A stretch of 64,000 nt of DNA from Psilocybe cubensis (lineage: Eukaryota). The stretch lies in contig CM039008.1 of the NCBI GenBank assembly GCA_017499595.2, forward strand, positions 2,356,001-2,420,000. The letters run 5' to 3'. Positions 1,336 through 53,590 of the stretch are shown here, piece by piece. Each line of letters begins with the position of its first letter. Position 1 is the first letter of the stretch. The translations under genes and the position numbers were made by a program. Under the pieces are notes generated by a model. That model made no database searches, was not told the DNA's origin, and saw only the letters and a program-made list of their open reading frames with translations.

Positions 1336-2228
1336 CCCCTTTGGTGAAAAACGGTGCATGTTTCCTCTCTCGGTTTCTTCTTTATTACTATCCGCGATTT
1401 ATCTCAAAGGCATATTTGAATGCGTGTGTTTCGGGTATGGACTTTACTTCATGCTTTCTCTTTTCGTTCCGCCTCTCTTTTTTTAACTAGGGTTATGGAT
1501 TTGTGGTAACATTATGAAGCCAAACAATGGACTTTTTTTTCTACTTCTGTTTGTTTGCTCGCATTTTTAACACCCGCCTGCCGTCCCTCAAACCCATGCA
1601 TTCCTGCAAGACCCATCAAGCTCAATCTCCGGAGCGGATACGAGTGCGCAACATCCACTTCATCATTGCTTTGCTCACTCTTTGCTCAAACAGTCTTGCA
1701 AGACTCAGCATCGGTTTTTCACTCGTCCTCTCACCCTTCTGCTCCAGGCAGTCATCCCATCCTGGCTCCTCGATACCCGCCTTTATTGCCTTAAACTGAC
1801 CGCTATCCAATCTGCCCACCTCACTTACTCACTCCGCCGGCAGCGCACAAGTCAAAAAGGATCAATAATGACTCCCTCTCCTGTCCCTCAAGATGGCCTC
1901 TCACTTTCTGCACTCGTTCTCTGCCGATGCACTCACCGCCTCCGATCAATTCATCTCTCGAATCGGCCAAAACTTCAAAACAAAGCAAAACGACAGTAAA
2001 CTCACCCGACGCAAGACTTCCGGCCGTACATCCAGCGCTGGCCATGACAGGAGCCATCCAAAGGGAGACCGTACCTTCTCTTCAAGGATTGGGGTGGTGG
2101 TGAGGTCCCTGAACAATATCCTATTCCCAACTCACACTCTGCACGCTGATCACCACCTGCACTCGTTCTTCCCCCCTCCGATCCAATCATCCCTTGATTC
2201 GGTCAAAACCTCAAAACACAGCAACTGA

Positions 2229-3070
2229 CAGCAAACTCACCCGACCCAAGACCCGCGGCGGCACATCCAGCGCTGCCTACGCCAGGAGCCATCGCGATTA
2301 CGTTTTCAGCACATCATAAAACCGAGGTGCAAGAGTTGGAGGGCTCGCAACGACTAGACACTCACAGCTGCAGAAAGAATCGGTCAAATTTCAAAACAAA
2401 GGAGAATGTCAGCGAATTCACCCAACACACCCTGCGCCGCCTACGCCAGAAGCCATTCACAACGACGACGTGTTATTTTGCCGCGCTTACCTTCTCTTCG
2501 AGCGAGGTCTGAGAGTCTAGGAGAAGAGGGAGACACTGACACCTGCAGAACAAATCGGTCAAACCTCAAAGCAGAACGACAGCAAACTCACCCGACACAA
2601 GACCCGCGGCAGCACATCCAGCGCTGCCTACGCCAGGAGCCATCGCGATTACGTTTTCAGCACATCATAAAACCGAGGTGCAAAAGTTGGAGGGCTCGCA
2701 ACGACTAGACACTCACAGCTGCAGAAAGAATCGGTCAAATTTCAAAACAAAGGAGAATGTCAGCGAATTCACCCAACACACCCTGCGCCGCCTACGCCAG
2801 AAGCCATTCACAACGACGACGTGTTATTTTGCCGCGCTTACCTTCTCTTCGAGCGAGGTCCGAGAGTCTAGGAGAAGAGGGAGACACTGACACCTGCAGA
2901 ACAAATCGGTCAAACCTCAAAGCAGAACGACAGCAAACTCACCCGACACAAGACCCGCGGCAGCACATCCAGCTCTGCCCACGCAGGAGCCATCCACAGC
3001 GACACCTTACCTTCTCTTCAAGCGAGGTCCGAGAGTCTAGGAGAAGAGGGGTGAGAGCTCGAAACGACTA
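2229..3070. repeat. 351-bp tandem repeat (~2.4 copies), each unit made of two diverged ~175-bp subunits
   Basis: AGCAAACTCACCCGAC recurs at ~2230, 2581 and 2932. Near-identical ORFs at 2327/2678 and 2406/2757 are offset by 351. A degenerate extra unit lies near 1990. Confidence 0.9.
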
Positions 3071-3134
3071 GACATGCTCTAGTACTCACTGTGCATCGCG
3101 CAGAACGTTCTGTGGTCTGCAACTGCAACTGCGC

Positions 3135-4575
3135 GTCAGAGGGGCTTGTCGGGCGTATGAAAATGGGCTAGACTCACCCTGTTCCGGTCGCTATGGCTGT
3201 CCGTTTGCACATTTAATACCAATCATTAATCTTTTTGTCCCATACTTAGAAGTCTTGGACTAAGTCTTCCGATAAGTATATCTTATGGTGTTCGAAGATA
3301 GAAAAATGGCTTCCAATCATAAAGATCCCATATCCACACATTTGTATATTGCAACCTTTGGTACAACTTTGAGTACCATACATATAGTTTTGGAGCCCAC
3401 ATATATATATTAGAATCCCTTACATAGAAAACTCATGCCCTTTCATACATTTTTTGCTCCCCCACATATATCTACTGGTTCCGGCAATCTTAGATTTTAC
3501 CTGTCGTCGTCCCGAAGATATACAGGCGATTTTCGGCATTTTTTATGCCGAGGCAAGCTTGCCTTCGTGCGAATTCGGCAAATCTCGGCAATCAGCCAGA
3601 CGAATCACAGCACATTGCTGTTTTTTCACCTTGACACTGGCAGAGTAAGCACTGACAAAGTTTCAAATACTAACCGATTGTGAATGCTACAATGTAAGCT
3701 GAATACAGCATTATTTCGTGTTTTTTCTGAGCCAAGCGCTGTGATGACAGCTAGTAGCGGATGTGTTAAGCTTGGTTAAGGTTAAATACACCTGAAAATG
3801 AGGTTATAGGTAGTCAATCTATTCAGTGTCAGCTATACGCACAGGTTTGGTGTTTCTTTTGTCAATCGTGAAATTTTAAATCCATATTGTGAACTTAAAA
3901 CACTCGCCTAGCTGCTCCACGAGTAGCTATCCACCCCAAAGCGGGGTACAAACATAATTCCCACACGGATTCGGCAGTGACGGCACGCACGATGGTCATC
4001 TCAACAACTCTATATCTTTGGAAAAAATGTTAGATATATGGGGAGGTGGTTTCAAAGTATGGTATAAGATTTCCTACGTAGGGGATAGATGCATATATGT
4101 CCGTACCTTTCATTAAAGCTGAAGGTCCTGTACATACAATGATTGGGATGATTTCCTCTATCTTCGGAAGCTATTTCTCTATGATTGGGACACCAATATA
4201 TATAATCGGCATTGTGTAAAAATGTCCTTTATATGTATGGGACAAAAAGATTGATGATTGGTATTAAATGTGCAAACGGACAGCCATAGGTCGCACAGTT
4301 GCCAGTGCAGAGCACTCCTTGAAGCACGTCAGTTTTCCGTGGCGAGTCGCCTGGCCGGCATACTCTGTCAGGCCTTCATTGTTGTCGGTGTGCAGAGAGT
4401 GACTGCGCATCAGAGGGGCTTGTCGGGCGCATGAAACGGGCGCAGACTCACATTTTCGAGGTCGCTCAGTTGCCAGCGCAGAGCACTGCTTGCAGCGCTT
4501 CGGTTTCTGTAGCGAGTTGGTTGACCGGCGTACTTGGTCAGACCGTCGTCATCGTTGTCGGTGTGGACAGAGCGA
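3135..4575. repeat. Diverged ~180-bp tandem duplication, first unit interrupted by the 3192-4288 element
   Basis: CAGAGGGGCTTGTCGGGCG...GACTCAC...GGTCGC.CAGTTGCCAG.GCAGAGCAC occurs split around the element and intact at ~4411-4570. Confidence 0.8.
3192..4288. mobile_element. Non-autonomous TIR DNA transposon (1097 bp), family 1; TATGG termini and 6-bp TSD (IS3EU-like)
   Basis: ~54-bp TIRs TATGGCTGTCCGTTTGCACATTTAATACCAATCAT with one mismatch. GGTCGC flanks both sides (3186-3191, 4289-4294). No transposase ORF. Confidence 0.92.
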
Positions 4576-4626
4576 GTGGAAAGGAGTGGAAAGGAAAGCT
4601 GAGGGGATTAGGGGATGAGTGAAAGC

Positions 4627-5984
4627 TATGGCTGCCCAAGTGGGGAAATATTCCCCGTAAATATAATTTCCTTATTTTTGACAAGTGCGTCAAGTATAAA
4701 ACAAAATTTGCGCGCGGAAACATTTGTTTGGTGCCCAGATTGATTTCAAGGTAACTTTGACGAGTCCGTAAATAAAATTGACTGCGCGGAAACATATTTT
4801 TCGCATAATTTGCAAGCTTGAGTGCACTATTTCTGCTCCAAATTATATTTTTCGTGTAAATTATATGCGCGTAAGTATGGCTGCCCAAGTGGGGAAATAT
4901 TCCCCGTAAACTTATTTATGTATTTTTCTTACTGCGTGAATTTGTAAAAAAAAAGTTGGAGCGCGGAAACATTTTTTGAGTGCGCAGATTGTTTTCTAGC
5001 TTAGCCGTAAACATATTTGACTGCGCGGAAACATATTTTGGGCATATTTTGCTAGCGCACATAAATTTCTACTGCCCTCAATTATACTTAATGCATAAAC
5101 ACTGTGCGCGTAGATACATTTTGTGCCGCAAACAAATCTTTCGAGGCGCGGAAAACATTGTTCAATTGCACTATTTCTAGCCTAAAGTGACCAGCCGTTA
5201 TGCCGAGATTATGTAAAATGATCTACAATGGCACCTCGGCACACCGAAACGAATTCAAGCTCCACCTTTCGGATTTTTGAAGAAAGTGATATCAAGGATT
5301 CTGTAATGCAATTCTAACCCACATTCATTTAATTACAAATTGATTACTATATAATCTACACTCTTTTGAAATATATTAATGTTGCTTTAATCAAGGAATG
5401 TGAGATAATCGCCTTGAAATCGCCTGTGTCGCTTTCTTGCACAGCCACTGATGCGCAATTATGATGGCAGTTGCTAATATTTTACTTTGTACACAATGGT
5501 TGTGGGCAATATTTTGACTTATTCTCGTGGATTTCTATGTAATACATATTTCAACATGTTTTTTCAATGTTACTTTCCCATTTTCGACTCTACCAATGCA
5601 CAAATGCGCTCAAGAATACACTGATTGATGCCTTTCCCACGATTGATGGGGTTTTTTTCACACAATGCTTGAGATGTCTGAAATGGCGCACAAGCTGCGC
5701 TGCTAATGGGGAGACCCCAAATTTACCTGATATGCTCTAATACTACATATAAAGTACTACACAAATTGTTATATCGTCATACGAGGCAGTAATAGATAGA
5801 ATAGCGATGTATTTTGTGTAGGTTTATCGGAACTTGAACTCGTTTAAGGTGTGCCGAGGTGCCATTTTAGATCATTTTACATAATCTCGGCATAACGGCT
5901 GGTCACTTTAGGCAAGAATCAATGGTTGTGAACAATGTTTTCCGCGCATTGGGGGGTTTGTTCAGCGCACAAAATGTACTTACG
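4627..5984. mobile_element. Internally inverted copy of family-2 TIR element: 249 bp of left end, then the remaining 1109 bp in reverse orientation
   Basis: 4627-4875 matches 5985-6233. 4876-5984 is the reverse complement of 6228-7336. CGTAAG (4870-4875) and CTTACG (5979-5984) mark the two junctions. Confidence 0.92.
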
Positions 5985-7336
5985 TATGGCTGCCCAAGTG
6001 GGGAAATATTCCCCGTAAATATAATTTCCTTATTTTTGACAAGTGCGTCAAGTATAAAACAAAATTTGCGCGCGGAAACATTTGTTTGGTGCCCAGATTG
6101 ATTTCAAGGTAACTTTGACGAGTCCGTAAATAAAATTGACTGTGCGGAAACATATTTTTCGCATAATTTGCAAGCTTGAGTGCACTATTTCTGCTCCAAA
6201 TTATATTTTTCGTGTAAATTATATGCGCGTAAGTACATTTTGTGCGCTGAACAAACCCCCCAATGCGCGGAAAACATTGTTCACAACCATTGATTCTTGC
6301 CTAAAGTGACCAGCCGTTATGCCGAGATTATGTAAAATGATCTAAAATGGCACCTCGGCACACCTTAAACGAGTTCAAGTTCCGATAAACCTACACAAAA
6401 TACATCGCTATTCTATCTATTACTGCCTCGTATGACGATATAACAATTTGTGTAGTACTTTATATGTAGTATTAGAGCATATCAGGTAAATTTGGGGTCT
6501 CCCCATTAGCAGCGCAGCTTGTGCGCCATTTCAGACATCTCAAGCATTGTGTGAAAAAAACCCCATCAATCGTGGGAAAGGCATCAATCAGTGTATTCTT
6601 GAGCGCATTTGTGCATTGGTAGAGTCGAAAATGGGAAAGTAACATTGAAAAAACATGTTGAAATATGTATTACATAGAAATCCACGAGAATAAGTCAAAA
6701 TATTGCCCACAACCATTGTGTACAAAGTAAAATATTAGCAACTGCCATCATAATTGCGCATCAGTGGCTGTGCAAGAAAGCGACACAGGCGATTTCAAGG
6801 CGATTATCTCACATTCCTTGATTAAAGCAACATTAATATATTTCAAAAGAGTGTAGATTATATAGTAATCAATTTGTAATTAAATGAATGTGGGTTAGAA
6901 TTGCATTACAGAATCCTTGATATCACTTTCTTCAAAAATCCGAAAGGTGGAGCTTGAATTCGTTTCGGTGTGCCGAGGTGCCATTGTAGATCATTTTACA
7001 TAATCTCGGCATAACGGCTGGTCACTTTAGGCTAGAAATAGTGCAATTGAACAATGTTTTCCGCGCCTCGAAAGATTTGTTTGCGGCACAAAATGTATCT
7101 ACGCGCACAGTGTTTATGCATTAAGTATAATTGAGGGCAGTAGAAATTTATGTGCGCTAGCAAAATATGCCCAAAATATGTTTCCGCGCAGTCAAATATA
7201 TTTACGGCTAAGCTAGAAAACAATCTGCGCACTCAAAAAATGTTTCCGCGCTCCAACTTTTTTTTTACAAATTCACGCAGTAAGAAAAATACATAAATAA
7301 GTTTACGGGGAATATTTCCCCACTTGGGCAGCCATA
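5985..7336. mobile_element. Complete non-autonomous TIR element (1352 bp), family 2; TATGG termini (IS3EU-like)
   Basis: 35-bp TIR TATGGCTGCCCAAGTGGGGAAATATTCCCCGTAAA at both ends. Internal ~65-bp inverted repeat (~6300-6364 and ~6967-7031) and subterminal GCGCGGAAA motifs. No coding capacity. Confidence 0.93.
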
Positions 7337-8188
7337 GATAATCGTCTTGAAATCGCCGTGAACGTTGCTTGAACGTGAAGTGTCGCTTTCTTGCACAGCC
7401 ACTAATGCGCAATTGTGATGGCCGCTGCTAATACTTTACTTCGTACACAGTAGTTGCGGGTAATATTTTGACATATTCTCGTAGATACCTATGTAATACA
7501 TATCTTACCACGCATTTCAATCTTATTCTCCTATTCCCGACTCTCCAAATGCACAAATGCGCTCAAGAATGCACTGATTGATGTCTTTCCCACGATAGAT
7601 GAGGTTATTTCACACAATGCTAGAGATGTCTGAAATGGCACACTAGCTGCACCACTAATGGGGAGACCCCAGAACCACTGGGGATTTGCTAATGCTACAT
7701 GTAAAGCACTGCAGAAATTGTTATTTTGTCCTATAAGGCAGTACTAGATAGAATAACCATGCATTGTGTATACAACTGTCGGAGCTTGAACTTGTTTTGG
7801 TGTGCCGAGGTGCCATGTTAGATCATTTTACATAATCTCGGCATAACGGCTGGTCACTTTAGGCTAGAAATAGTGCAACTGAACAATGTTTTCCGTGCAT
7901 CGAAAGATTTGTTTGGGGCTCAAAATGTTTCTATGCGCATAGGATTTATGCATTAAATATAATTGAGGGCAGTAAAAATTTACGTGCGCTAGCAAAATAT
8001 GTCCAAAATATGTTTCCGCGCAGTCAAATATGTTTCCGCGCAATCAAATATATTTACGGCTAAGCTAGAAAACAATCTGCGCACTCAAAAAATGTTTCCG
8101 CGCTCTAACATATTTTTTACAAATTCACGCAGTAAGAAAAATACCTAAATAAGTTTACGGGGAATATTTCCCCACTTGGGCAGCCATA
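7337..8188. mobile_element. Truncated, diverged relative of the family-2 element retaining one TIR
   Basis: 7337-~7860 resembles 5404-5911 with many substitutions. ~7860-8188 resembles 7030-7336 and ends in the same TIR (...CTTGGGCAGCCATA). Confidence 0.88.
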
Positions 8189-11282: not shown

Positions 11283-12377
11283 ATCCTCTCAAAGATAGAA
11301 AATAAAGTTGATGGTTCCGGTATCCAGAGGGCGCATATATGCGTGTTTTAAAGCTCTGATATGCCTCCAGGCTCCGAGATCCAGACCGCCCGCGACCCAA
11401 AGAAATTAAATGAAACTGCACATATAACGAATCCAGCATAAAACGAGCGCGAGAAAAAAATATGGGCTAGGGGAAGAAGAGCAAATGTAGGACACAGACT
11501 CCGGGTGCGCATTCGGCCCACCCAGCCATACAGGGGCACGTACGCACACACCCTCACAGAGGTTGGTCATGGTACTCGTGTGGAGTGGCATATCACTAAC
11601 TCGGCGAGATCACCCAGTCCCAAAGTACTAACAGACAAAAAAAAGAACGTAATTGCAGAAATCTGAAACTCGCCACCGCCAACGCGAAATGGCAGCAAAA
11701 TGCCATGCATGGTTAGCATAGATGACGACGATAGAGACGCCAAACCAAAAGGCTGCTGGGCTGCTGACGTGAGGTAGGGGCAGCAGGGGTTACACCATCG
11801 GTACGGATACAGCGTGTCACATACGTGTGAAAGCACGGAGCAGAAGCTCAGTCGACGTTTGCCAAAACAGCAACAACAGACAGTCTGATTCGGCCTGTAT
11901 TTCAGAAAGTGAGTCAACGCGATATGATATCACAGCCGAGGTTGCAAATCCTTTTAGTTCAGCTCTCGTCAAGTCAAACCGCCACCTGCATAATGACCCC
12001 TGTCGAAAGTCTTATCCGCGTCGGACAGTCAAGTCACGCACAACGCGACATCACTCAGAATCATCAACTTGACTGGAGAATCGGGTTCAAAATACGTATC
12101 ACAGTCACTTTACCTCTGCCTTCGAGGCCTTCGAGTTTCCGGCGTTCTCCCTCCCCAGAGTGCAGGTCTCCAACGCGCCAACTACTGTTTCCTGCAAGTC
12201 TATACGTCTGTATCCAATTAGTATAGCATAGGAAGAAGCACGTAAAGTCAAACGAAAGAAAAGCACAATTGGTTTGAGTGGACTTGAACGTCGAAAATGA
12301 GAAAAAGGTTATTTGTCCCTGTTGTGTCCGTTCCCAGCACGTGTTTATCAATCCTCCTGACTCCTTCTCAGGAAACA

Positions 12378-13667
12378 CATCAGCAAAAGTGCTCGGATCC
12401 CCAAATGCCTTGTCAAGGCATTTGGAGGCGTCCAAAGGCCCCAATGCCCGAAAGGCATTGTGCGGTTCGTAACGAGAGACTCCGAAGACTGAAAGGCTTC
12501 GAATTATTTATTCCAAGGAAATGATTTAGGTAGTACTAAATATAGCCAAATCATTTGGTTAAAATTTGAGAGTGTCCGTAACATTTAGGCAACATTTGGG
12601 AGTCCCAAAAACATTTGGCAAACATTTGCCAGTGTTTAAATGTTTTACACTGTTCACATGGTTCCTTATTTAGTGGATCCCTCAGATTATCATAGCAAGT
12701 AAAAAGAACTTGTTGCATTAAGAAAACTTATACTACAACATGACTCCAAAAGGTACAGAGAAGCGAGAAAGTGGGTAAATAACAAAATGATGCTGAGATG
12801 ATGTCATCAATAGATGTTACCCATGAATTATAGGAGCTACTTTGGTTGCATGATGTAAGCAAGGTGTGTGTGCAGAAGTGCGCATATACTCACCTAAAAG
12901 TTTGGGAACTAGTGAATAATTATATACCAAGCCGGATATCCAGTAGATCTAAGGCAGAAGGAGAACGGTCTACGGAAAGGCAGATACATGGTCAGTTGAG
13001 GATGATCTAATCAGAAAGGAAGTGGCAGAATTACCTGTGAGTTAGATTCAGCTATGATATACGAAGACTTAGAGTTGAAAAGTCCAAGCCCAAGTCCCAC
13101 CAAGCGTCGCCGGAGTAGTGAACATGAGAGTATGTGGAAAGAAAGAAACGGGGGTTGAAAGAGATTATTATGCACAAACAAACAAATATTTGATCTCCGA
13201 TTCACTCCGATTCATGCTGATCGCATTGTGACTTCGTTGACAGTCGAGAAATTGTACAGACCGGGTGACCAACTGTACAGAATTCTAATTAGAACTAATG
13301 TGGCTGTATAGCCAGTAAATTTTGGTGTGGATGAATTATTTCATCAGCATTTGAAAGTCCTGTAAACATTTCTCATAACCGAAGTGTAAAACCAAATGTT
13401 TTGTGACCTCTTTTAATTTTGTTAAATGATTCCTTCAAGGTTGCACAGTCTACGAATTTTTTTTTGTAAATTGTAGTTACTAGAAATTATTTGGTGCTTG
13501 TTTTGTGCTTCAAAAATGTTTGTGGGGCCTCCAAATGACCACCAAATGATTTGAGTGTTCCCAAATGTTGCCCAAATGTTTTGCGTGACATTACTGTGTC
13601 ACGTAAAACATTGGCATGCCTTATAAGGCTCCCAAGGCATTTGGGGGTCTGGTCACTTTTGCTGATG
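12378..13667 (+). mobile_element. Non-autonomous TIR element (1290 bp), copy 1; CA...TG ends, probable 2-bp TSD (CMC/EnSpm-like)
   Basis: TIR CATCAGCAAAAGTG continuing imperfectly into CCCCAAATGCCTTG. Many subterminal CAAATG/CATTTG repeats. Flanked by CA on both sides. Confidence 0.88.
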
Positions 13668-13886
13668 CAGCAGTTCACGTTCAGTTGTGGTTCAGAAGCG
13701 GCGACGTATGTGGACTAGACGTTGATGTTGAGTACGGATCATTGAGATAGAGCCCTTGCACAACAAAATACACGACTGGCTGCACAAAAGCAAGAAAAGT
13801 CCCCTGTTTGCGGGCCCATTGATAGCCGTATTGCCCAAAGTATTGCCAACTTCGTGGTTGTGCTGGTCGCTGTTGTCTTGCCAATG

Positions 13887-15176
13887 CATCAGCAAAAGTG
13901 ACCAGACCCCCAAATGCCTTGGGAGCCTTATAAGGCATGCCAATGTTTTACGTGACACAGTAATGTCACGCAAAACATTTGGGCAACATTTGGGAACACT
14001 CAAATCATTTGGTGGTCATTTGGAGGCCCCACAAACATTTTTGAAGCACAAAACAAGCACCAAATAATTTCTAGTAACTACAATTTACAAAAAAAAATTC
14101 GTAGACTGTGCAACCTTGAAGGAATCATTTAACAAAATTAAAAGAGGTCACAAAACATTTGGTTTTACACTTCGGTTATGAGAAATGTTTACAGGACTTT
14201 CAAATGCTGATGAAATAATTCATCCACACCAAAATTTACTGGCTATACAGCCACATTAGTTCTAATTAGAATTCTGTACAGTTGGTCACCCGGTCTGTAC
14301 AATTTCTCGACTGTCAACGAAGTCACAATGCGATCAGCATGAATCGGAGTGAATCGGAGATCAAATATTTGTTTGTTTGTGCATAATAATCTCTTTCAAC
14401 CCCCGTTTCTTTCTTTCCACATACTCTCATGTTCACTACTCCGGCGACGCTTGGTGGGACTTGGGCTTGGACTTTTCAACTCTAAGTCTTCGTATATCAT
14501 AGCTGAATCTAACTCACAGGTAATTCTGCCACTTCCTTTCTGATTAGATCATCCTCAACTGACCATGTATCTGCCTTTCCGTAGACCGTTCTCCTTCTGC
14601 CTTAGATCTACTGGATATCCGGCTTGGTATATAATTATTCACTAGTTCCCAAACTTTTAGGTGAGTATATGCGCACTTCTGCACACACACCTTGCTTACA
14701 TCATGCAACCAAAGTAGCTCCTATAATTCATGGGTAACATCTATTGATGACATCATCTCAGCATCATTTTGTTATTTACCCACTTTCTCGCTTCTCTGTA
14801 CCTTTTGGAGTCATGTTGTAGTATAAGTTTTCTTAATGCAACAAGTTCTTTTTACTTGCTATGATAATCTGAGGGATCCACTAAATAAGGAACCATGTGA
14901 ACAGTGTAAAACATTTAAACACTGGCAAATGTTTGCCAAATGTTTTTGGGACTCCCAAATGTTGCCTAAATGTTACGGACACTCTCAAATTTTAACCAAA
15001 TGATTTGGCTATATTTAGTACTACCTAAATCATTTCCTTGGAATAAATAATTCGAAGCCTTTCAGTCTTCGGAGTCTCTCGTTACGAACCGCACAATGCC
15101 TTTCGGGCATTGGGGCCTTTGGACGCCTCCAAATGCCTTGACAAGGCATTTGGGGATCCGAGCACTTTTGCTGATG
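13887..15176 (-). mobile_element. Non-autonomous TIR element (1290 bp), copy 2, inverted relative to copy 1
   Basis: Reverse complement of 12378-13667. Mirror ORFs 13011-13205(-) and 14349-14543(+) are identical and share the coordinate sum 27554. Flanked by TG on both sides. Confidence 0.9.
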
Positions 15177-16610
15177 TGCTCAATCTCAACCTCGACCTCA
15201 ATGTCAACGACGCATCGAAGCCTTAACATCGACTCATCAGTTATGAAATTTGAAGGCTTTTCCCCATCATTATATCTCGTGAAGTAATCATACTATGCCA
15301 CGCCTCTGCCCCGATTTTGGGGTGTAACCCACCAAGAGTCTTGCATCTTCAATGCCTCTAGCTCCCCGCGCTCCGCAGCCTGGCTCTGAATACAGCTTTT
15401 CTTGTTCACCCTGTGGAATCTGGAATCTGGGTCCAGCGCACGACACTCATCGGACCAAATTCAGGGAACGGAGGGGTGGCATGCCAGGTAACATATGCTT
15501 TTCTTGTATGGTACAAATGACAAGTGCTCTACTACTTCCACCTCCACCTTCAGTTTACCCATCTCTCGCCGCACCGCGTCATCGCATTACACTAGGAGAT
15601 GATGGGTGAGATTTGTGGGAATGTGTGCGTGTTGCGTGTTGCGCGTTGTATGTTGCGTGTTATGTGTTTCGCCGGTGCGTCGTGGGGATATACAGGTGCG
15701 TGTTATCTGCGTCCTGTAAAGTTGTTAATTTAGTATCAGATTGTGTGGAAGTCATTGAAGCCACTGGACGTAGGGTTAGTATGCACGTGTTATGTGGATG
15801 ACGGGTGTACCCAGGCGTTGCGGGTACAAAGTCAATTTAATTTTACGAGTGCTCATAAGTAGGAGCGCAAGAGCGTATCATGATGAACGTAGATTGCCGG
15901 CGGACGAGGATCCGGACTTGCATTTTCGTGCCGTGAACGTGAAAAGATACTGACTCAAGAAGAGGAAAGCGCGCGGTTTATGAGTGGGTGGAGCCCGAGA
16001 CTGAGAAACTTGCGTACTTTCGAGGAAGTTGAATTGCACGTCTTGGTTGTGTTCCAGTTCGTTGTGTTCCAGTTCTCCTGAGAGCGGTCTAGGAAGAACA
16101 ATAGATGTATAGCCCGAATCTTTCACAGCAGATCTGTGAATCCACAATTTAAAAAAATGCAGATATATGTGTGTATGTAGAGTACATAAAAGTTGGATAG
16201 ATGATGAATCAGTGTGATATGTAATGGATGTGTATATAATGAGGAAAGGATAGAGGCCGAGGAGATGTGCAACCTCCGCACAGGAAGACGAGCAGGTGTG
16301 ATAATCACAAGGTCAATGTGCCGTGAATCAGACGAGTAAGCCATAAATGATAAAAAAATCCATGTCCATCTTATCTCGAACGCAATTGATCGGATGTTGA
16401 AGGACCCGCATGCTGAGGGCGTGAAACGAGTGTCGGCCGGCGAACACTCGGAGTTGACCATGGACTCGCGATGCACACAGGTTTGACGAATAGAGTATAC
16501 AGCGAGCGCCTAAGGTCGCCTGTTCACTTCAAGTGGGACACCTGGGATGTTGAGCGAGGAGAATTTAGACTGGCGAACGAGGAAAGGTGGATAACAGGAC
16601 ATGCAATGAC

Positions 16611-46009: not shown

Positions 46010-49000
46010 ATGGCACAATATGACTCCGAGGCCGAGTCGATCCAAAGCGTCGCTTCACCATCGCAAAAGTTCGTCCCAGAGGAAGACGACGACGAGAACT
46101 TGTGGGAAGTTGAGTGTATTACGGCAGAGAGGAACAATATGTTCAAGGTCAAATGGGTTGGCCTCGATCCTATGACTGGGAAACCATGGGCGCAGAGCTG
46201 GGTTCCAAAGAAGGACTGCACACCCGACCTTGTGCTCGCGTGGAAATTGAAGAAGAAACAAGAAGAGAGGAGGAAATGTAAGTGACACTCAAAGGCCATT
46301 AACATTTTCCATCATGTTCATATCTTCGTCGCGTTCTATTTCTAGCCACCGCGTCGACTAAGGGACGCTCATCTGCTGCATCGTCGTCTACTGCCGCACC
46401 ACGAGCATCTACGTCTAAACTCGCAGAAGCCCGCCAATCGACTTCCACTACGCGTGAAGCTACGACTGCGAGACGCGGCCGGTCAAGCGGCGTGTCAATA
46501 CCAACCACCAATTCCCCAGACAATGTCACGAAATCCAAACCCAAGGTCGCACCACTGCCTATTGCAGAAGCCGATGTTGAAATGGAATCTGAACAAGAAC
46601 GAGAAGATATCAAATCCAAGGGGAAACGCGCAACTACGACGCATGGGAAGAAACACAAGCTTAACGAGGCACAGAGCGTCAACAATTCTGCTCGCATGCA
46701 ATCCAAATCCAAGGGCACACCTGATGTTGAAATGGAATCCGAACAAGAACAAGAAGACGTTAAGTCCAAGGGGAAAGGCGCGACTACGACGCAAGGGAAG
46801 AAACGCAAGCTTCACGAGGCACGGAGCGCAAACAACTCTGCTCACACGCCTACTGTCAATGTCAATATTAATGCAGGGATCGATAACGAGCAAGAGCCAC
46901 CCACGACACGCGTCGTTTCGAGACCAAAGAAGAAGCGAAAGGTAGAGGTCGATACGGTGAAACCGAAAGTTGCGGAGAAGGAGGAGGAGGAAGAGAGCAC
47001 CCAAGAAGCGGAAGCTTACTCTTCACGGGTAGCCAATCGAAAAGAGCTCGTCGAGTCAGAGGAGGAGGAAGAGCGCCTGGTCGAAGAGGTTTTATCGCAG
47101 GGGATTCCCACACCGCCTCGTCATGATAGCGATTCCTCTGTGCAGATTGTTGACGTTGGCGGCAAGGGTGACCACAATGAGGATGAGATTGACGAATTGG
47201 CCGACGACGATTCCGTAATTATTGTTTCCCAGCCACCTCCCAAGGCCAAGTCTACTACCAAACCTACGAATCCATCGCCGAAGGAAGCACCTTCCCCTCC
47301 TCGGAAGCCATCGCCCAAACCTCGCCCAGAAACTTCAGCAGCCTCGACTTTGAAAGCGACGCATACCAAGCGCGTATGGTCCGGACAAGCGATGCAGGTG
47401 AATACAACGCCCCGCAGGCTCAGAGTGGTCGACTACTCCAATAGAAGCGAAAGCAGCAAAAGCGACAGCGAGGAGAGCGAAAGTACAAGCAGCAAGAGTA
47501 GGAGCGAAAGGACCGACAGTCAGAGTAGAAGTAGAAGCAGCAGAAGAAGCAAGCCCAGTAACAGTGAGAATGATGATGACAGCAGCCACAGCGATCATCC
47601 ACAACACTCGTCGTTGGCGAAACCGCGTTATGGACCGCCGACGGAAGAGAGATCCGTTTTTTGGGAGGGTCCAGTTGATCGTGATGCGCTCCCGGATGAA
47701 GAGCGATTGACGCCGCGCAGCCTTGCTCGACTTAAGCAATTTGATAGGGAGATGGAAGCGTTGGAAAAGGAAGAAGAGCTGAATAGGCGCAGATTGCGTA
47801 AAGAACCAAGCGCCGTCCAAGGATTGTTGAAAGGAGCTGGGACATCGAAGAGTAGTGTGGCGCAACCCTCGACGTCTGGACATAAACAGGCTGTTCCGTC
47901 TTCATCCAAGGGCAAGTGGAAGGACAGGATAGTGGAGCTCATCAACGTCGACACGGAGAGCGAGAAAGACCTTGTACCGCCTACGAAGCAACCTATGTCC
48001 GTTCCTGATAAATCCTCAACCCTTATGAACCCTTCGAGTTCCAATGAAGCCGTCGAAAAACCACATTCCAAACCAGACTCGACTCATCCTATCACGACCT
48101 CTCTAATGCGAGAGGCTGGCGACGCAGACATACGTCCTATCGCTTCCAAGGCATCAAAGCAGACCGATGGCTCTTCTAAGTTGACAAATGCAACCAAACA
48201 GCGCGTCCACAAACCTCCCTCCAATTCTTATGAGCACGAAACCATTCCGGAGACAGAGGCTGAAGAATCTCAATCCCAGGAGAAAGGAAAAGGCAAGGCC
48301 CGCGATATTGACTTGACGCCTCCAGGACAGACTTACCCTACCCTCCTCCAACCACCGACGCCTTCCACTCCAGGGGGGCGAGCTACCCTCAGATCGAAAA
48401 TGCGACCAAAGACGCCACTGTCTCGAGGTCAATCCATGTCTGTCACGGGTAAACCCCTCGGTCCCATTCCTCAGCTCACACCATCGATCTTCTACCCCCA
48501 TCTTCCGCGTGCGCAACAGCCGGCGTCGTCGCTGCCTGAGAGTATCTCCGATGTCGTCGATTCTGTGAAGCACCCAAGCTCGAAGATCAGCACACAGATA
48601 GACAACGATGGCGATGTGCAGATGGAGTCCATTGAGGAGTTTGACTCGCCTGAGAAACCTCTGAGACCAGCAGCAGCGGCAGGTTCTGGGTCTGGTGCAA
48701 ATGGACATCGCGTAGGAAGTGCAGAGCAGATATGGGAGTCGGAAGTGGTGAAGAGGGGTCAAGAAATTGCGGAGGCTGCAAAGAGGAAGGCTGCTGCTGA
48801 AGCGGGTTTGCCAGCACCAAAGCCGAAGAAGACTCTCGATGATATCCGTGCAGCGCATAGTCGGAGGAATAGCAATACCAGCGATACCCATGGACAACGA
48901 GCGGGCCCAGGCGGTCTCGTTCATCAAACTATTGTGGAGGAGGACGAAAATATACAAGATGCGTCGACCATAGCCATTCCACCTGCTTCGGGACCACGGA

Positions 49001-50625
49001 TGGAAGACGAAAGTGCGACTCTCCGCGAGATGGAAGCTGCCTACGTTGATCTTGACGGCGGTGATTCACAGCCAGTTCCACCTCATGTTGCGTTGAGACA
49101 AGAGGAAGAGGAGTCGACGCAAGACGCTATGCAAACCAGGATGGACGATGCGTTGTTCCAGGTCTCGAAGACTTCGTCCTCGGAGAACGCTGTCTCGCAA
49201 CTGGTCCTTGGGTCTGATCAAGAAACCAACGATGGTGGCTTGGAGAACATCCCTAAGGTATTAATCATTTTTTTGTTGTCGATATAACATTTTACAAAAT
49301 GTTTTTCATGATTAGATTGTCGTGCAGGATCCTAGCCGGCCAGCTTCTCCCCGTCCGTATTCGGATGATGGCTTGCAAATGGCCAACATGCGCACCACCA
49401 GATCCCGTTCCAGGTCGCAAACTCCAGCTGTAGTCCCACAACCATTCAAAGGCCGGGGCAAGGGTAAGGCAAAGGCCACGCCAGCAAATAGTAGGGCAGG
49501 ATCTCTTGCGCCGCCCTCTAAGGCTTCTTCGTCTACGGTTAGCATTATCATCCCGCTAGTATTTCTTTCTGATTTCACTGAAAATATTCATGCAATTCTA
49601 TAGAGTCAACATCGCGACGATCTTCAAAATCGTCTTGATACTGCCCTCGCACTTGTTGAAACAAAGTCACAAGAGATAAAAAATCTTCAAGCTCAACTGG
49701 TTTCTGAACGAACCGCGAGTGCCGCGGAGGTCGAAAGGCTTAAAGCTCTGAATGAAACGCAGGAAAACATGATCGCCTCTTCGGCATCACGAATGACCGA
49801 CGCACAGGAGGAGTTCAAGCAACAGCTAGCTGAAGCTGAAACAAGGAACTCTCAGCTTCTCGCGGAGAAGGAGGAGTGGGCAGCCGAAAAACTCCGTCTG
49901 CTTGCACAACTAGATGCAGCTACGAAAAGTAGGGAAAGCGCAGACAAGGATCGCGAGTTCTTCCGTGAGCAGTATGCCCAAGCCTCCGGATATGTCACCT
50001 CCGTACGGGAAGACAACAAAGAGCTTGAGAAGCGTATCAAGATTGCTGAGGAGCAGGCGCAGTCTGGTGTTGCGCTGATTAAGGCGACATTTGAGATGCG
50101 CGTCAAGAATTTGGAAACTGATCTGAAGTCGTGGAGACGGATGGCGGAGTTTTTGATTGAGAAGGACAAGCGCACAGATAACGATGAACTTAGGCGCCGA
50201 GCAGCCGAGTACCCAGAGTTGGCTTCACGCTGTGAACGCCAAAAGAACTCGATTGAAGTCCTAGAGGAGGAATATGACGATCTAAAGGAAGAAATGGACC
50301 GTGAACGGGCGGCTGACAGAATGCACATTGAACGATTGACGAAGCAAGTAACGAGGCTGAATGTAGAGCTGAATGAAGCTCTGACTAAACTGGACAGGCT
50401 CGGACGAGCAAACGCTGAAGACGAGAGTGCAGATTCAAACCCTAGTGCAAATGAATTTGTTTACCCTTGTCAATGGAGAGATTATGATGGCGTTGAAAGT
50501 ACTCCTTGTTTGGAGGTCTTTCCAACTATTTCGGTATGTTCTGTCTAATTTATTAGTTTTTCGTTGCACTCATAATCACCTAGGAACTCGAGCATCATCT
50601 ACTTTCTGGACATCTTCATACCTAA
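46010..50625 (+). CDS. Large nuclear protein: N-terminal chromodomain-like module, long disordered region, coiled coil and C-terminal C2H2-like finger
   Basis: WEVECITAE...FKVKWVG.DP.TGKPW..SWVP...CTPDLV.AW. A 931-aa ORF, a heptad-rich region (49600-50400) and YPC-x12-C-x12-H-x4-H across the last intron. Confidence 0.8.
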
Positions 50626-53222: not shown

Positions 53223-53303
53223 TGTCGGTAACTGGAATCGAACCAGTGGCTCTTCGGAATGATTGACCACAACGAAGTGATTTAACCCCTAATCGATACC
53301 GAC
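53223..53303 (-). tRNA. tRNA-His (GUG) with a 9-nt intron
   Basis: Cloverleaf: acceptor GTCGGTA/TACCGAC, D stem GATT/AATC, anticodon stem CTTCG/CGAAG with TT-GTG-G, intron TCAATCATT, T arm ACTGG-TTCGATT-CCAGT. Confidence 0.93.
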
Positions 53304-53509: not shown

Positions 53510-53590
53510 TGTCGGTAACTGGAATCGAACCAGTGGCTCTTCGGAATGTTACACCACAACGAAGTGATTTAACCCCTAATCGATACCGAC
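53510..53590 (-). tRNA. tRNA-His (GUG) with a 9-nt intron, second copy
   Basis: Mature sequence identical to 53223-53303; intron TGTAACATT. Confidence 0.93.

Follow-up and report, generated by a model that had tools for sequence, protein, structure and literature searches.

A near-perfect palindrome of an IS3EU/GingerRoot-like element in Psilocybe cubensis and its possible origin in a reversed-ends-type transposition

Within a 64-kb stretch of Psilocybe cubensis DNA (contig CM039008.1; 64,000 nt, hereafter called the window), the region 4627-7336 consists entirely of one transposable element, arranged in such a way that most of it forms a palindrome. The question raised by this locus is which kind of event brought about the arrangement. 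In maize, rice, and Drosophila, alternative transposition has been studied extensively as a cause of inversions, deletions, and duplications, and much work has likewise been devoted to IS-dimer reactions of bacteria. Natural fungal footprints of the process have mostly only been suggested, and a paper on Colletotrichum merely speculates about it. A preliminary description of the locus had proposed a recent reversed-ends transposition with the element itself as the target, had drawn a parallel to Ac/Ds and P elements, and had postulated an active transposase. Here, we describe the anatomy of the locus to the base, assign the element to a likely superfamily, and weigh the routes by which the palindrome may have been formed.

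Layout of the palindrome complex

The element at 5985-7336, which is 1352 bp long and is designated E, served as the reference copy. A repeat search and a blastn comparison of E with the 64-kb window resolved the region 4627-7336 into E[1-249], an inverted E[244-1352], and a full E[1-1352], in this order. The complex has a length of 2710 bp, corresponding to 2 x 1352 + 6. Its parts and its immediate flanks are as follows.

4621-4626, no strand: left outer flank GAAAGC, without a TSD partner (direct reading)
4627-4875, plus strand: X, partial copy E[1-249] with left terminus, TIR, and subterminal repeats (repeat search, blastn)
4870-4875, plus strand: target hexamer CGTAAG (E244-249), adjoining junction J1 (direct reading)
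4876-5984, minus strand: Y, inverted E[244-1352], the left palindrome arm, starting with the right-end TIR (1108/1109 complementary to 6228-7336)
5979-5984, minus strand: inverted hexamer CTTACG, adjoining junction J2 (direct reading)
5985-7336, plus strand: Z, complete non-autonomous E of 1352 bp (repeat search, blastn)
5985-6227, plus strand: 243-bp spacer between the arms, E[1-243] (repeat search and derivation)
6228-7336, plus strand: right palindrome arm, E[244-1352] (repeat search)
7337-7342, no strand: right outer flank GATAAT, the first bases of the neighbouring element G, without a TSD partner (direct reading)

Positions 4627-4877 matched E[1-251] (5985-6235) in blastn with an identity of 250/251. 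The sole mismatch between X and Z, a C at 4785 versus a T at 6143, is located inside a subterminal GCGCGGAAACAT motif. In reverse complement, the left arm (4876-5984) matches E[244-1352] (6228-7336) with an identity of 1108/1109, and the single mismatch falls into alignment column 973 (A at 7200, paired with 5012). Direct reading of the junctions gave CGTAAG followed by TATGGCTG at J1 (4875/4876) and CTTACG followed by TATGGCTG at J2 (5984/5985). Both junctions adjoin the first base of the terminal repeat (CGTAAG/TATGG and CTTACG/TATGG), and the hexamer E[244-249] precedes each of them, reading CGTAAG at J1 and, inverted, CTTACG at J2. The direct match of X extends 2 nt further, to 4877, because E[250-251] is TA and matches the first two bases of the TIR; the 6-bp reading is unaffected. 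The preliminary description had given this layout correctly to the base, including the position of the new junctions exactly at a TIR, the inverted 6-bp duplication, and arms with about one mismatch per segment, for which we counted 1 in 251 nt and 1 in 1109 nt. The 19-nt terminus occurs five times in 64 kb against an expectation of 0.01, and a chance origin of the repeat structure of the complex is excluded. Apart from fragment G at 7337-8188, blastn revealed no other E-like DNA in the 64-kb window.

The outer flanks show a different picture. GAAAGC and GATAAT carry the same base at just 3/6 positions and thus do not represent a TSD. Two simple readings of the complex were rejected. Transposition of the whole 2710-bp unit as a composite would have left an outer TSD, which is absent. 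If Z had been inserted into a full inverted copy, E[249->1] would follow from 7337 onward, where G is found instead.

The window contains a second near-perfect palindrome, formed by an unrelated transposon, at 12376-15178, with arms of 1294 nt that lie 215 nt apart. It consists of two complete, tail-to-tail copies of an element of 1290 bp that has CATCA..TGATG termini and is flanked by CA at either end. The element fits the description given for PlavakaB, which has 2-3-bp TSDs (PMC12730594). Coding continuity across the spacer of this palindrome would have indicated whether the spacer had been inverted, and no usable ORF was found there. The occurrence of two TE palindromes within 10 kb suggests that recent insertions clustered at a local hot spot or that inversion, hybrid-end or replicative, took place repeatedly.

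Element E, its neighbours, and its representation in public reads

E is non-coding. Its long imperfect terminal inverted repeats comprise ~390 nt (77%) and include a perfect TIR core of 35 nt. The subterminal repeats GCGCGGAAACAT yielded 11 matches versus 0.19 expected, all of them within these elements. The window has sparse ORFs, with one DUF6535 protein and one Pex19 fragment, in keeping with eukaryotic, fungal DNA, and no transposase domain was detected in the scanned window ORFs of at least 150 aa. The DUF6535 family is typical of mushroom-forming fungi. Two pieces of the TIR, 29 nt and 22 nt long, were searched for in metagenomes, with 0 matches each. Two neighbouring elements are relevant to the interpretation of E.

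7337-8188, plus strand: G, a truncated, diverged relative of E (blastn)
3192-4288, no strand: H, a 1097-bp element of a family other than E (terminus, TIR, and TSD)

G starts abruptly, with a position homologous to E824 in reverse complement, and, compared with E, it has its middle segment turned round. Over the terminal ~400 nt it is of the right-end type, with 89.5% identity to E[965-1352], whereas the value for the left end is about 77-79%. In the 64-kb window, blastn revealed no trace of the half that G lacks. H and E have the 8-nt terminus TATGGCTG in common. The TIR of H measures 60 nt at 95%, and the element is flanked by a perfect 6-bp TSD, GGTCGC, at 3186-3191 and 4289-4294. A paralogous repeat unit of ~171 bp contains GGTCGC once, near 4460-4465, and represents the empty site for H. 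The TSD length of 6 bp that had been proposed for E is thus corroborated by an element with the same terminus and by its paralogous empty site. A reading of the termini with a TA TSD, as in Tc1/mariner-like elements, was rejected, as it would leave 8 unexplained bases at J2 and the TSD of H is 6 bp.

The ends of E, G, and H read TATGG and CCATA. Elements of the IS3EU/GingerRoot superfamily are described as having TA..TA termini and usually 6-bp TSDs (PMC10045372, PMC12730594), and the fungal IS3EU families described from Pucciniales end with TAYGG..CCRTA and have TIRs of >30 bp (PMC12730594). E and H show these termini, with TIRs of 35 nt and 60 nt, respectively. A 6-bp TSD is seen at H, the one complete same-terminus element in the window, and is matched by the 6-bp overlap at the E junctions. 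The enzyme that mobilises elements of this superfamily is an IS3-like DDD/E transposase. Judged by the sequence hallmarks, E looks like an IS3EU/GingerRoot-like non-autonomous element and not like a hAT or P element. The parallel to Ac/Ds and P elements holds for the anatomy of the junctions, which fits a two-ended integration, but does not extend to the superfamily.

Four of the 12 public runs found were compared with the window over 3800-6300, a stretch picked beforehand so that each arm occurs once. In run X11, which consists of raw reads, 8882 reads were placed, 1293 of them at at least 99%, 3251 at 95-99%, and 4338 at 90-95%. Loose ends before the right terminus at 4876 were observed in 440 X11 reads, with a consensus agreement of 0.39. 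Such a variety of flanks at the right terminus indicates that the E family sits at many sites, that is, it is multi-copy. Unitigs from the interior of E were identical in runs X1, X2, and X5 and had ~3-12 times the depth of the flank unitig, which is a rough sign of several copies, depth not being copy number. The flank unitig covering 4262-4654 showed no differences in X1 and X2 (4263-4654 in X5) and extended only 28 nt into the TIR, which is under the 31-nt rule. At 4755, 226/226 X11 reads had an A where the window has a C; at 6113, 56/56 reads had an A versus C in the window; and at 6143, 69/69 reads had a C versus T. All four runs were devoid of the window alleles at several E positions and thus derive from other strains. 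Neither a progenitor nor another haplotype of the complex was seen in the four public runs compared.

Routes to the complex

We prefer the explanation that the complex was made by one reversed-ends-type event between two linked direct copies, and we give this reading about an even chance of being correct. The progenitor would have carried two near-identical IS3EU/GingerRoot-like non-autonomous copies as closely spaced direct repeats. E1 would have occupied a site with GAAAGC at the end of its left flank, and E2 would have lain at GATAAT inside the diverged relative G. The two facing ends, right in E1 and left in E2, would have been paired by the transposase and inserted together into a 6-bp staggered target at E1 positions 244-249. 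Such an insertion would invert E1[244-1352] and leave the hexamer in inverted form at the two termini. The DNA between the copies, comprising the right TSD of E1, the left TSD of E2, and the left part of G, would be lost. The predicted product is E1[1-249], inverted E1[244-1352], E2[1-1352], and the rest of G. The junction anatomy, the 6-bp stagger, the hallmarks of the superfamily, the mismatch of the outer flanks, and the truncation of G are observed, and the two-copy progenitor and the chemistry are inferred.

Reversed-ends transposition (RET) should place the breakpoints exactly at element termini and produce an inverted TSD of the length typical of the family, and this is what we observed at both J1 and J2. 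The result supports the view that the two junctions are what a transposase-made two-ended integration into a 6-bp staggered target within the element would leave. RET should also leave outer flanks that stem from two different insertions, with loss of the DNA between the transposons. At the present locus, the flanks are GAAAGC and GATAAT, and G is truncated at 7337. Both features are consistent with RET but not exclusive to it, as unequal recombination gives the same result. We prefer this reading because one event between two copies explains all four features at once: the inversion, the hexamer in inverted form, the mismatch of the flanks, and the truncation of G. The same outcome is described in the legend to Figure S1D of a paper on Galileo (PMC2775673). 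The inference of a reversed-ends transposition is therefore retained in its neighbouring-copy version, which explains the junctions, the flank mismatch, and the truncated G, but the arrangement is not a unique footprint of such an event.

Exactly the same internal arrangement also arises by an inverted nested insertion followed by a flip of the spacer, so that only the flank mismatch favours the two-copy model. On this possible, though clearly less probable, route, an E copy would have been inserted in inverted orientation into another copy at E244-249, with a direct 6-bp TSD, and recombination between the arms would later have inverted the 243-bp spacer. The intermediate, consisting of host[1-249], an inverted complete copy, and host[244-1352], would also be 2710 bp long. 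According to our derivation, spacer orientation is the sole difference between the complex and a simple inverted nested insertion, and the flip yields identical length and junctions. As the flipped J2 is its own reverse complement, one crossover between the 1109-bp arms interconverts the two isomers, and short reads or k-mer contigs cannot separate them. Inversion of spacers by recombination between palindrome arms has precedents, spacer orientation being different in approximately half of the determinable human-chimpanzee and human-macaque comparisons (PMC8327919). Moreover, G has its middle segment opposite to E, as is found in long-TIR Galileo copies (PMC2775673), an insertion of the E family into a relative is already present at J3, and nested insertion with a flip would be the simplest route if IS3EU elements move by copy-out-paste-in. 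The price is three events (nested insertion, flip, and flank event) instead of one, all of them within the time of only 2 substitutions, unless gene conversion masks the age. The outer flanks in particular need a further event, for instance a deletion that stops at the terminus or unequal recombination involving two direct copies, and nested structures of the Ds type were reported to be rare in maize B73 (PMC3260210). A double Ds has a contiguous inner copy with a direct TSD and a host with its own matching TSD, whereas the first 243 bp of the inner copy are in opposite orientation here and the host flanks differ. Contiguity would be restored by one spacer inversion. On the other hand, ordinary unequal recombination of two direct copies is another possible source of the flank mismatch that favours the two-copy model. 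Since such recombination is common, our preference for the two-copy event over nested insertion is moderate.

Two further explanations carry considerably less weight. One is a single copy acting on itself, either by joint insertion of the left and right ends from sister chromatids into E244-249 (hybrid element insertion or sister-chromatid transposition, SCT) or by replicative intramolecular self-insertion, with one flank replaced later. Our derivation for this route gives exactly E[1-249], inverted E[244-1352], and E[1-1352], and X and Z share the C at 4755 and 6113, seen in 0/4 runs, as would be expected of sister copies. SCT-made inverted TE duplications have been documented in maize (10.1101/2020.01.07.897926). 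We nevertheless consider the route rather improbable, because it predicts an intact outer 6-bp TSD, which is absent, and requires a second rearrangement exactly at the terminus. The sister-copy version of the original proposal is not supported on these grounds, as it predicts matching outer TSDs in place of GAAAGC and GATAAT. The other explanation, which we regard as very improbable, is an assembly artefact with chimeric junctions or with an arbitrary orientation of the 243-bp spacer, in which case the true structure would be a plain nested insertion. A mis-join of repeats would fall into homologous sequence and not at exact TIR termini with the 6-bp overlap typical of the family. The second palindrome is just 5 kb away, which might point to a local assembly problem, but it is likewise bounded by exact termini, and these belong to an unrelated family. 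No piece spanning J1 or J2 was present among the 24 pieces listed, out of 644 contig pieces, for the four runs, which are from other strains, and the orientation of the spacer is beyond the reach of reads shorter than ~1.4 kb. A plain mis-join is unlikely; spacer orientation is the part that an assembler could get wrong.

Whichever route was taken, the age of the complex is of interest. The direct repeat formed by X and Z, which is outside arm conversion, differs at 1/251 positions and fits a young event. Closely spaced inverted arms, however, can stay identical via gene conversion, so that the near-identity of the arms may in part reflect conversion, and the assignment of the event as recent is not secure. 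As for the postulated active transposase, the formation of the junctions required the action of such an enzyme, and the family is multi-copy according to the many flanks in the reads. We conclude that a transposase has been active in the species.

Chemistry and comparison with known systems

For the two-copy event, two chemistries may be considered. One would be the cut-and-paste mechanism known from reversed-ends transposition of Ac/Ds. Cut-and-paste is described as a prerequisite of classical RET (PMC8225341), whereas new copies of the IS3EU element Styx from Zymoseptoria, which have 6-bp TSDs, were reported to appear with the parental copies kept (PMC10853768). By analogy, these two observations would count against a two-copy RET for the IS3EU-like E. 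The other chemistry could apply if IS3EU elements work like bacterial IS3/IS30, in which case an IR-IR junction between the two copies would be formed and resolved intramolecularly. The bacterial IS3, IS30, and related families are described as moving by copy-out-paste-in, and IS30 joins the IRs of two, sometimes distant, copies, the IR-IR junction leading to deletions and inversions (PMC9333248). Reactions of IS30 dimers include inner IS sequences as targets (PMC9333248). An IS-dimer route would, by this analogy, leave the same product, and the sequence appears compatible with either chemistry. In its boldest form, the analogy would make the locus a fossil of a prokaryote-style IS-dimer pathway in a eukaryote, in which the facing IRs were joined, the intervening DNA was deleted, and the junction was inserted into the element itself; the resulting hairpin-forming palindrome of 1.1 kb could additionally silence the family through small RNAs, in the manner of the 'killer' loci Ac killer and Mu killer of maize. 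We consider this proposal doubtful.

RET and SCT in maize and rice, hybrid element insertion in Drosophila, bacterial IS-dimers, double Ds, and the Ac killer/Mu killer palindromes are already known. What is new about the present case is that the element is IS3EU-like, that it resides in a mushroom-type fungus, and that the target is the element itself, by which an inversion becomes a transposon palindrome. In the literature searched, we found no description of alternative transposition for IS3EU/GingerRoot, and the sole paper on the superfamily among the matches listed (GingerRoot) cites alternative transposition for Ac/Ds alone. If the two-copy reading is true, the ends of different IS3EU copies are usable together, which would bear on the movement of a little-known, IS3-related eukaryotic superfamily and on the reshaping of mushroom genomes. 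A more general caution concerns any TE palindrome with a short spacer, in which alternative transposition and nested insertion become indistinguishable through flipping of the spacer. Such footprints therefore have to be judged from their flanks and from other haplotypes.

Among the known systems, the RET of Ac/fAc in maize resembles our preferred two-copy event most directly. There, too, two copies in direct orientation contribute their facing ends to a joint insertion, which inverts the stretch from one end to the target, places the TSD at both termini, and eliminates the DNA between the transposons (PMC8225341, PMC3744419). In contrast to Ac/fAc, the target here would be inside one of the participating copies, so that what is inverted is itself transposon DNA, yielding a palindrome. 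Furthermore, Ac is a hAT element with an 8-bp TSD, whereas E is IS3EU-like, has a 6-bp TSD, and resides in a fungus. The IS-dimers of the IS30/IS3 families share with the proposed event that the IRs of two copies are joined or used together and that inner IS sequences are possible targets (PMC9333248). IS3EU transposases are related to IS3. Unlike the IS30 dimers, which belong to a bacterial plasmid system, the E locus is known from its sequence, which does not by itself demonstrate a chemistry.

The double Ds of maize likewise contains two copies' worth of element at one site, in inverted orientation and as a result of self-insertion (PMC3260210, PMC7584900). Its inner copy is described as contiguous, whereas a 243-bp end is in opposite orientation in the E complex and the outer flanks carry no TSD. 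Ac killer and Mu killer are, like the E complex, natural long inverted duplications of transposon ends, and the Ac case is attributed to alternative transposition (10.1101/2020.01.07.897926). According to that source, these loci give dsRNA and siRNAs and silence their families, whereas E is a non-autonomous element. Galileo of Drosophila buzzatii resembles E in being non-autonomous, in its very long TIRs, and in having its middle segment in both orientations, and it raised the same question, ectopic recombination versus hybrid-end transposition, which was judged by the TSD pattern and by chimerism (PMC2775673). Unlike E, Galileo belongs to the P superfamily and has a 7-bp TSD, and ectopic recombination was favoured for a chromosomal inversion in that case (PMC2775673).

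Element H and the adjoining repeat array

The left neighbour of the E complex, that is, of the rearranged, palindromic double copy of the 1352-bp transposon E at 4627–7336, is element H, which belongs to a different family and carries the same 8-nt terminus. Its insertion site lies within a single unit of an array of ~171-bp repeats. The array, composed of ~170/351-bp units, spans positions 2199–4578, is broken by H, and ends ~50 bp short of the E complex.

Element H and units of the repeat array
3192–4288: element H, 1097 bp, 60-nt TIR, 6-bp TSD GGTCGC
2199–2994: repeat array (TRF), period 351, 97%
2486–3050: repeat array (TRF), period 169
3100–3190, 4288–4405, and 4459–4578: more array units

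In the raw-read run, the terminal ~30–57 bp of H were of very high copy number, with ~600 per direction versus 40–60 in the adjoining flank bins, and 1003 loose-ended reads were found behind the H end at 4288.

Relatives of E

Contigs from X2 and X5, two public sequencing runs of other strains, contained E204 joined to E336 (mapped positions 4830, 5892, and 6188), which represents a family variant with a 131-bp internal deletion. In other copies, divergence sets in at E336. X11, X1, and X5 also show another locus, with a conserved sequence adjoining E on its left-end side; this flank is the most common one among 282 reads (agreement 0.61).

Relative to E, its truncated relative G (7337–8188) has a 21-nt insertion near the start and a tandemly duplicated subterminal repeat unit (20 nt, 2.5 copies, 8006–8055). 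Given the right-end-type terminus of G, its middle segment is oriented opposite to that of E.

Other features of the window

On the minus strand, ARAGORN returned two predictions of 81 nt each (53223–53303 and 53510–53590), 287 bp apart, labelled "tRNA-???" and having an anticodon of two bases. These probably represent a short repeat present twice, not tRNA genes. A 931-aa open frame at 46492–49287 had no match in Pfam. The region in which it lies is strongly AT-skewed (0.29) and holds several overlapping ORFs of 160–270 aa on both strands; it may represent coding sequence that is repetitive or of low complexity.

A second palindrome formed by element K

The repeat search revealed a second near-perfect palindrome at 12376–15178, whose arms are 100% complementary and lie 215 nt apart.

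Components of the second palindrome
12376–13669 and 13885–15178: arms, 1294 nt each
12378–13667: complete element K, 1290 bp, one copy per arm

The two K copies are arranged tail-to-tail around a 219-bp spacer of unique sequence. They could stem from two independent local insertions, or else from an inversion, of hybrid-end or replicative type, that took place 219 bp away. Read in element orientation, both sides of each copy are CA; since every flank is the same, the flanks do not discriminate between these origins. K has a 35-nt TIR (89%), the termini CATCAGC..GCTGATG, and CCAAATG-type subterminal repeats. Its termini and 2-bp flank agree with the description of PlavakaB in PMC12730594.
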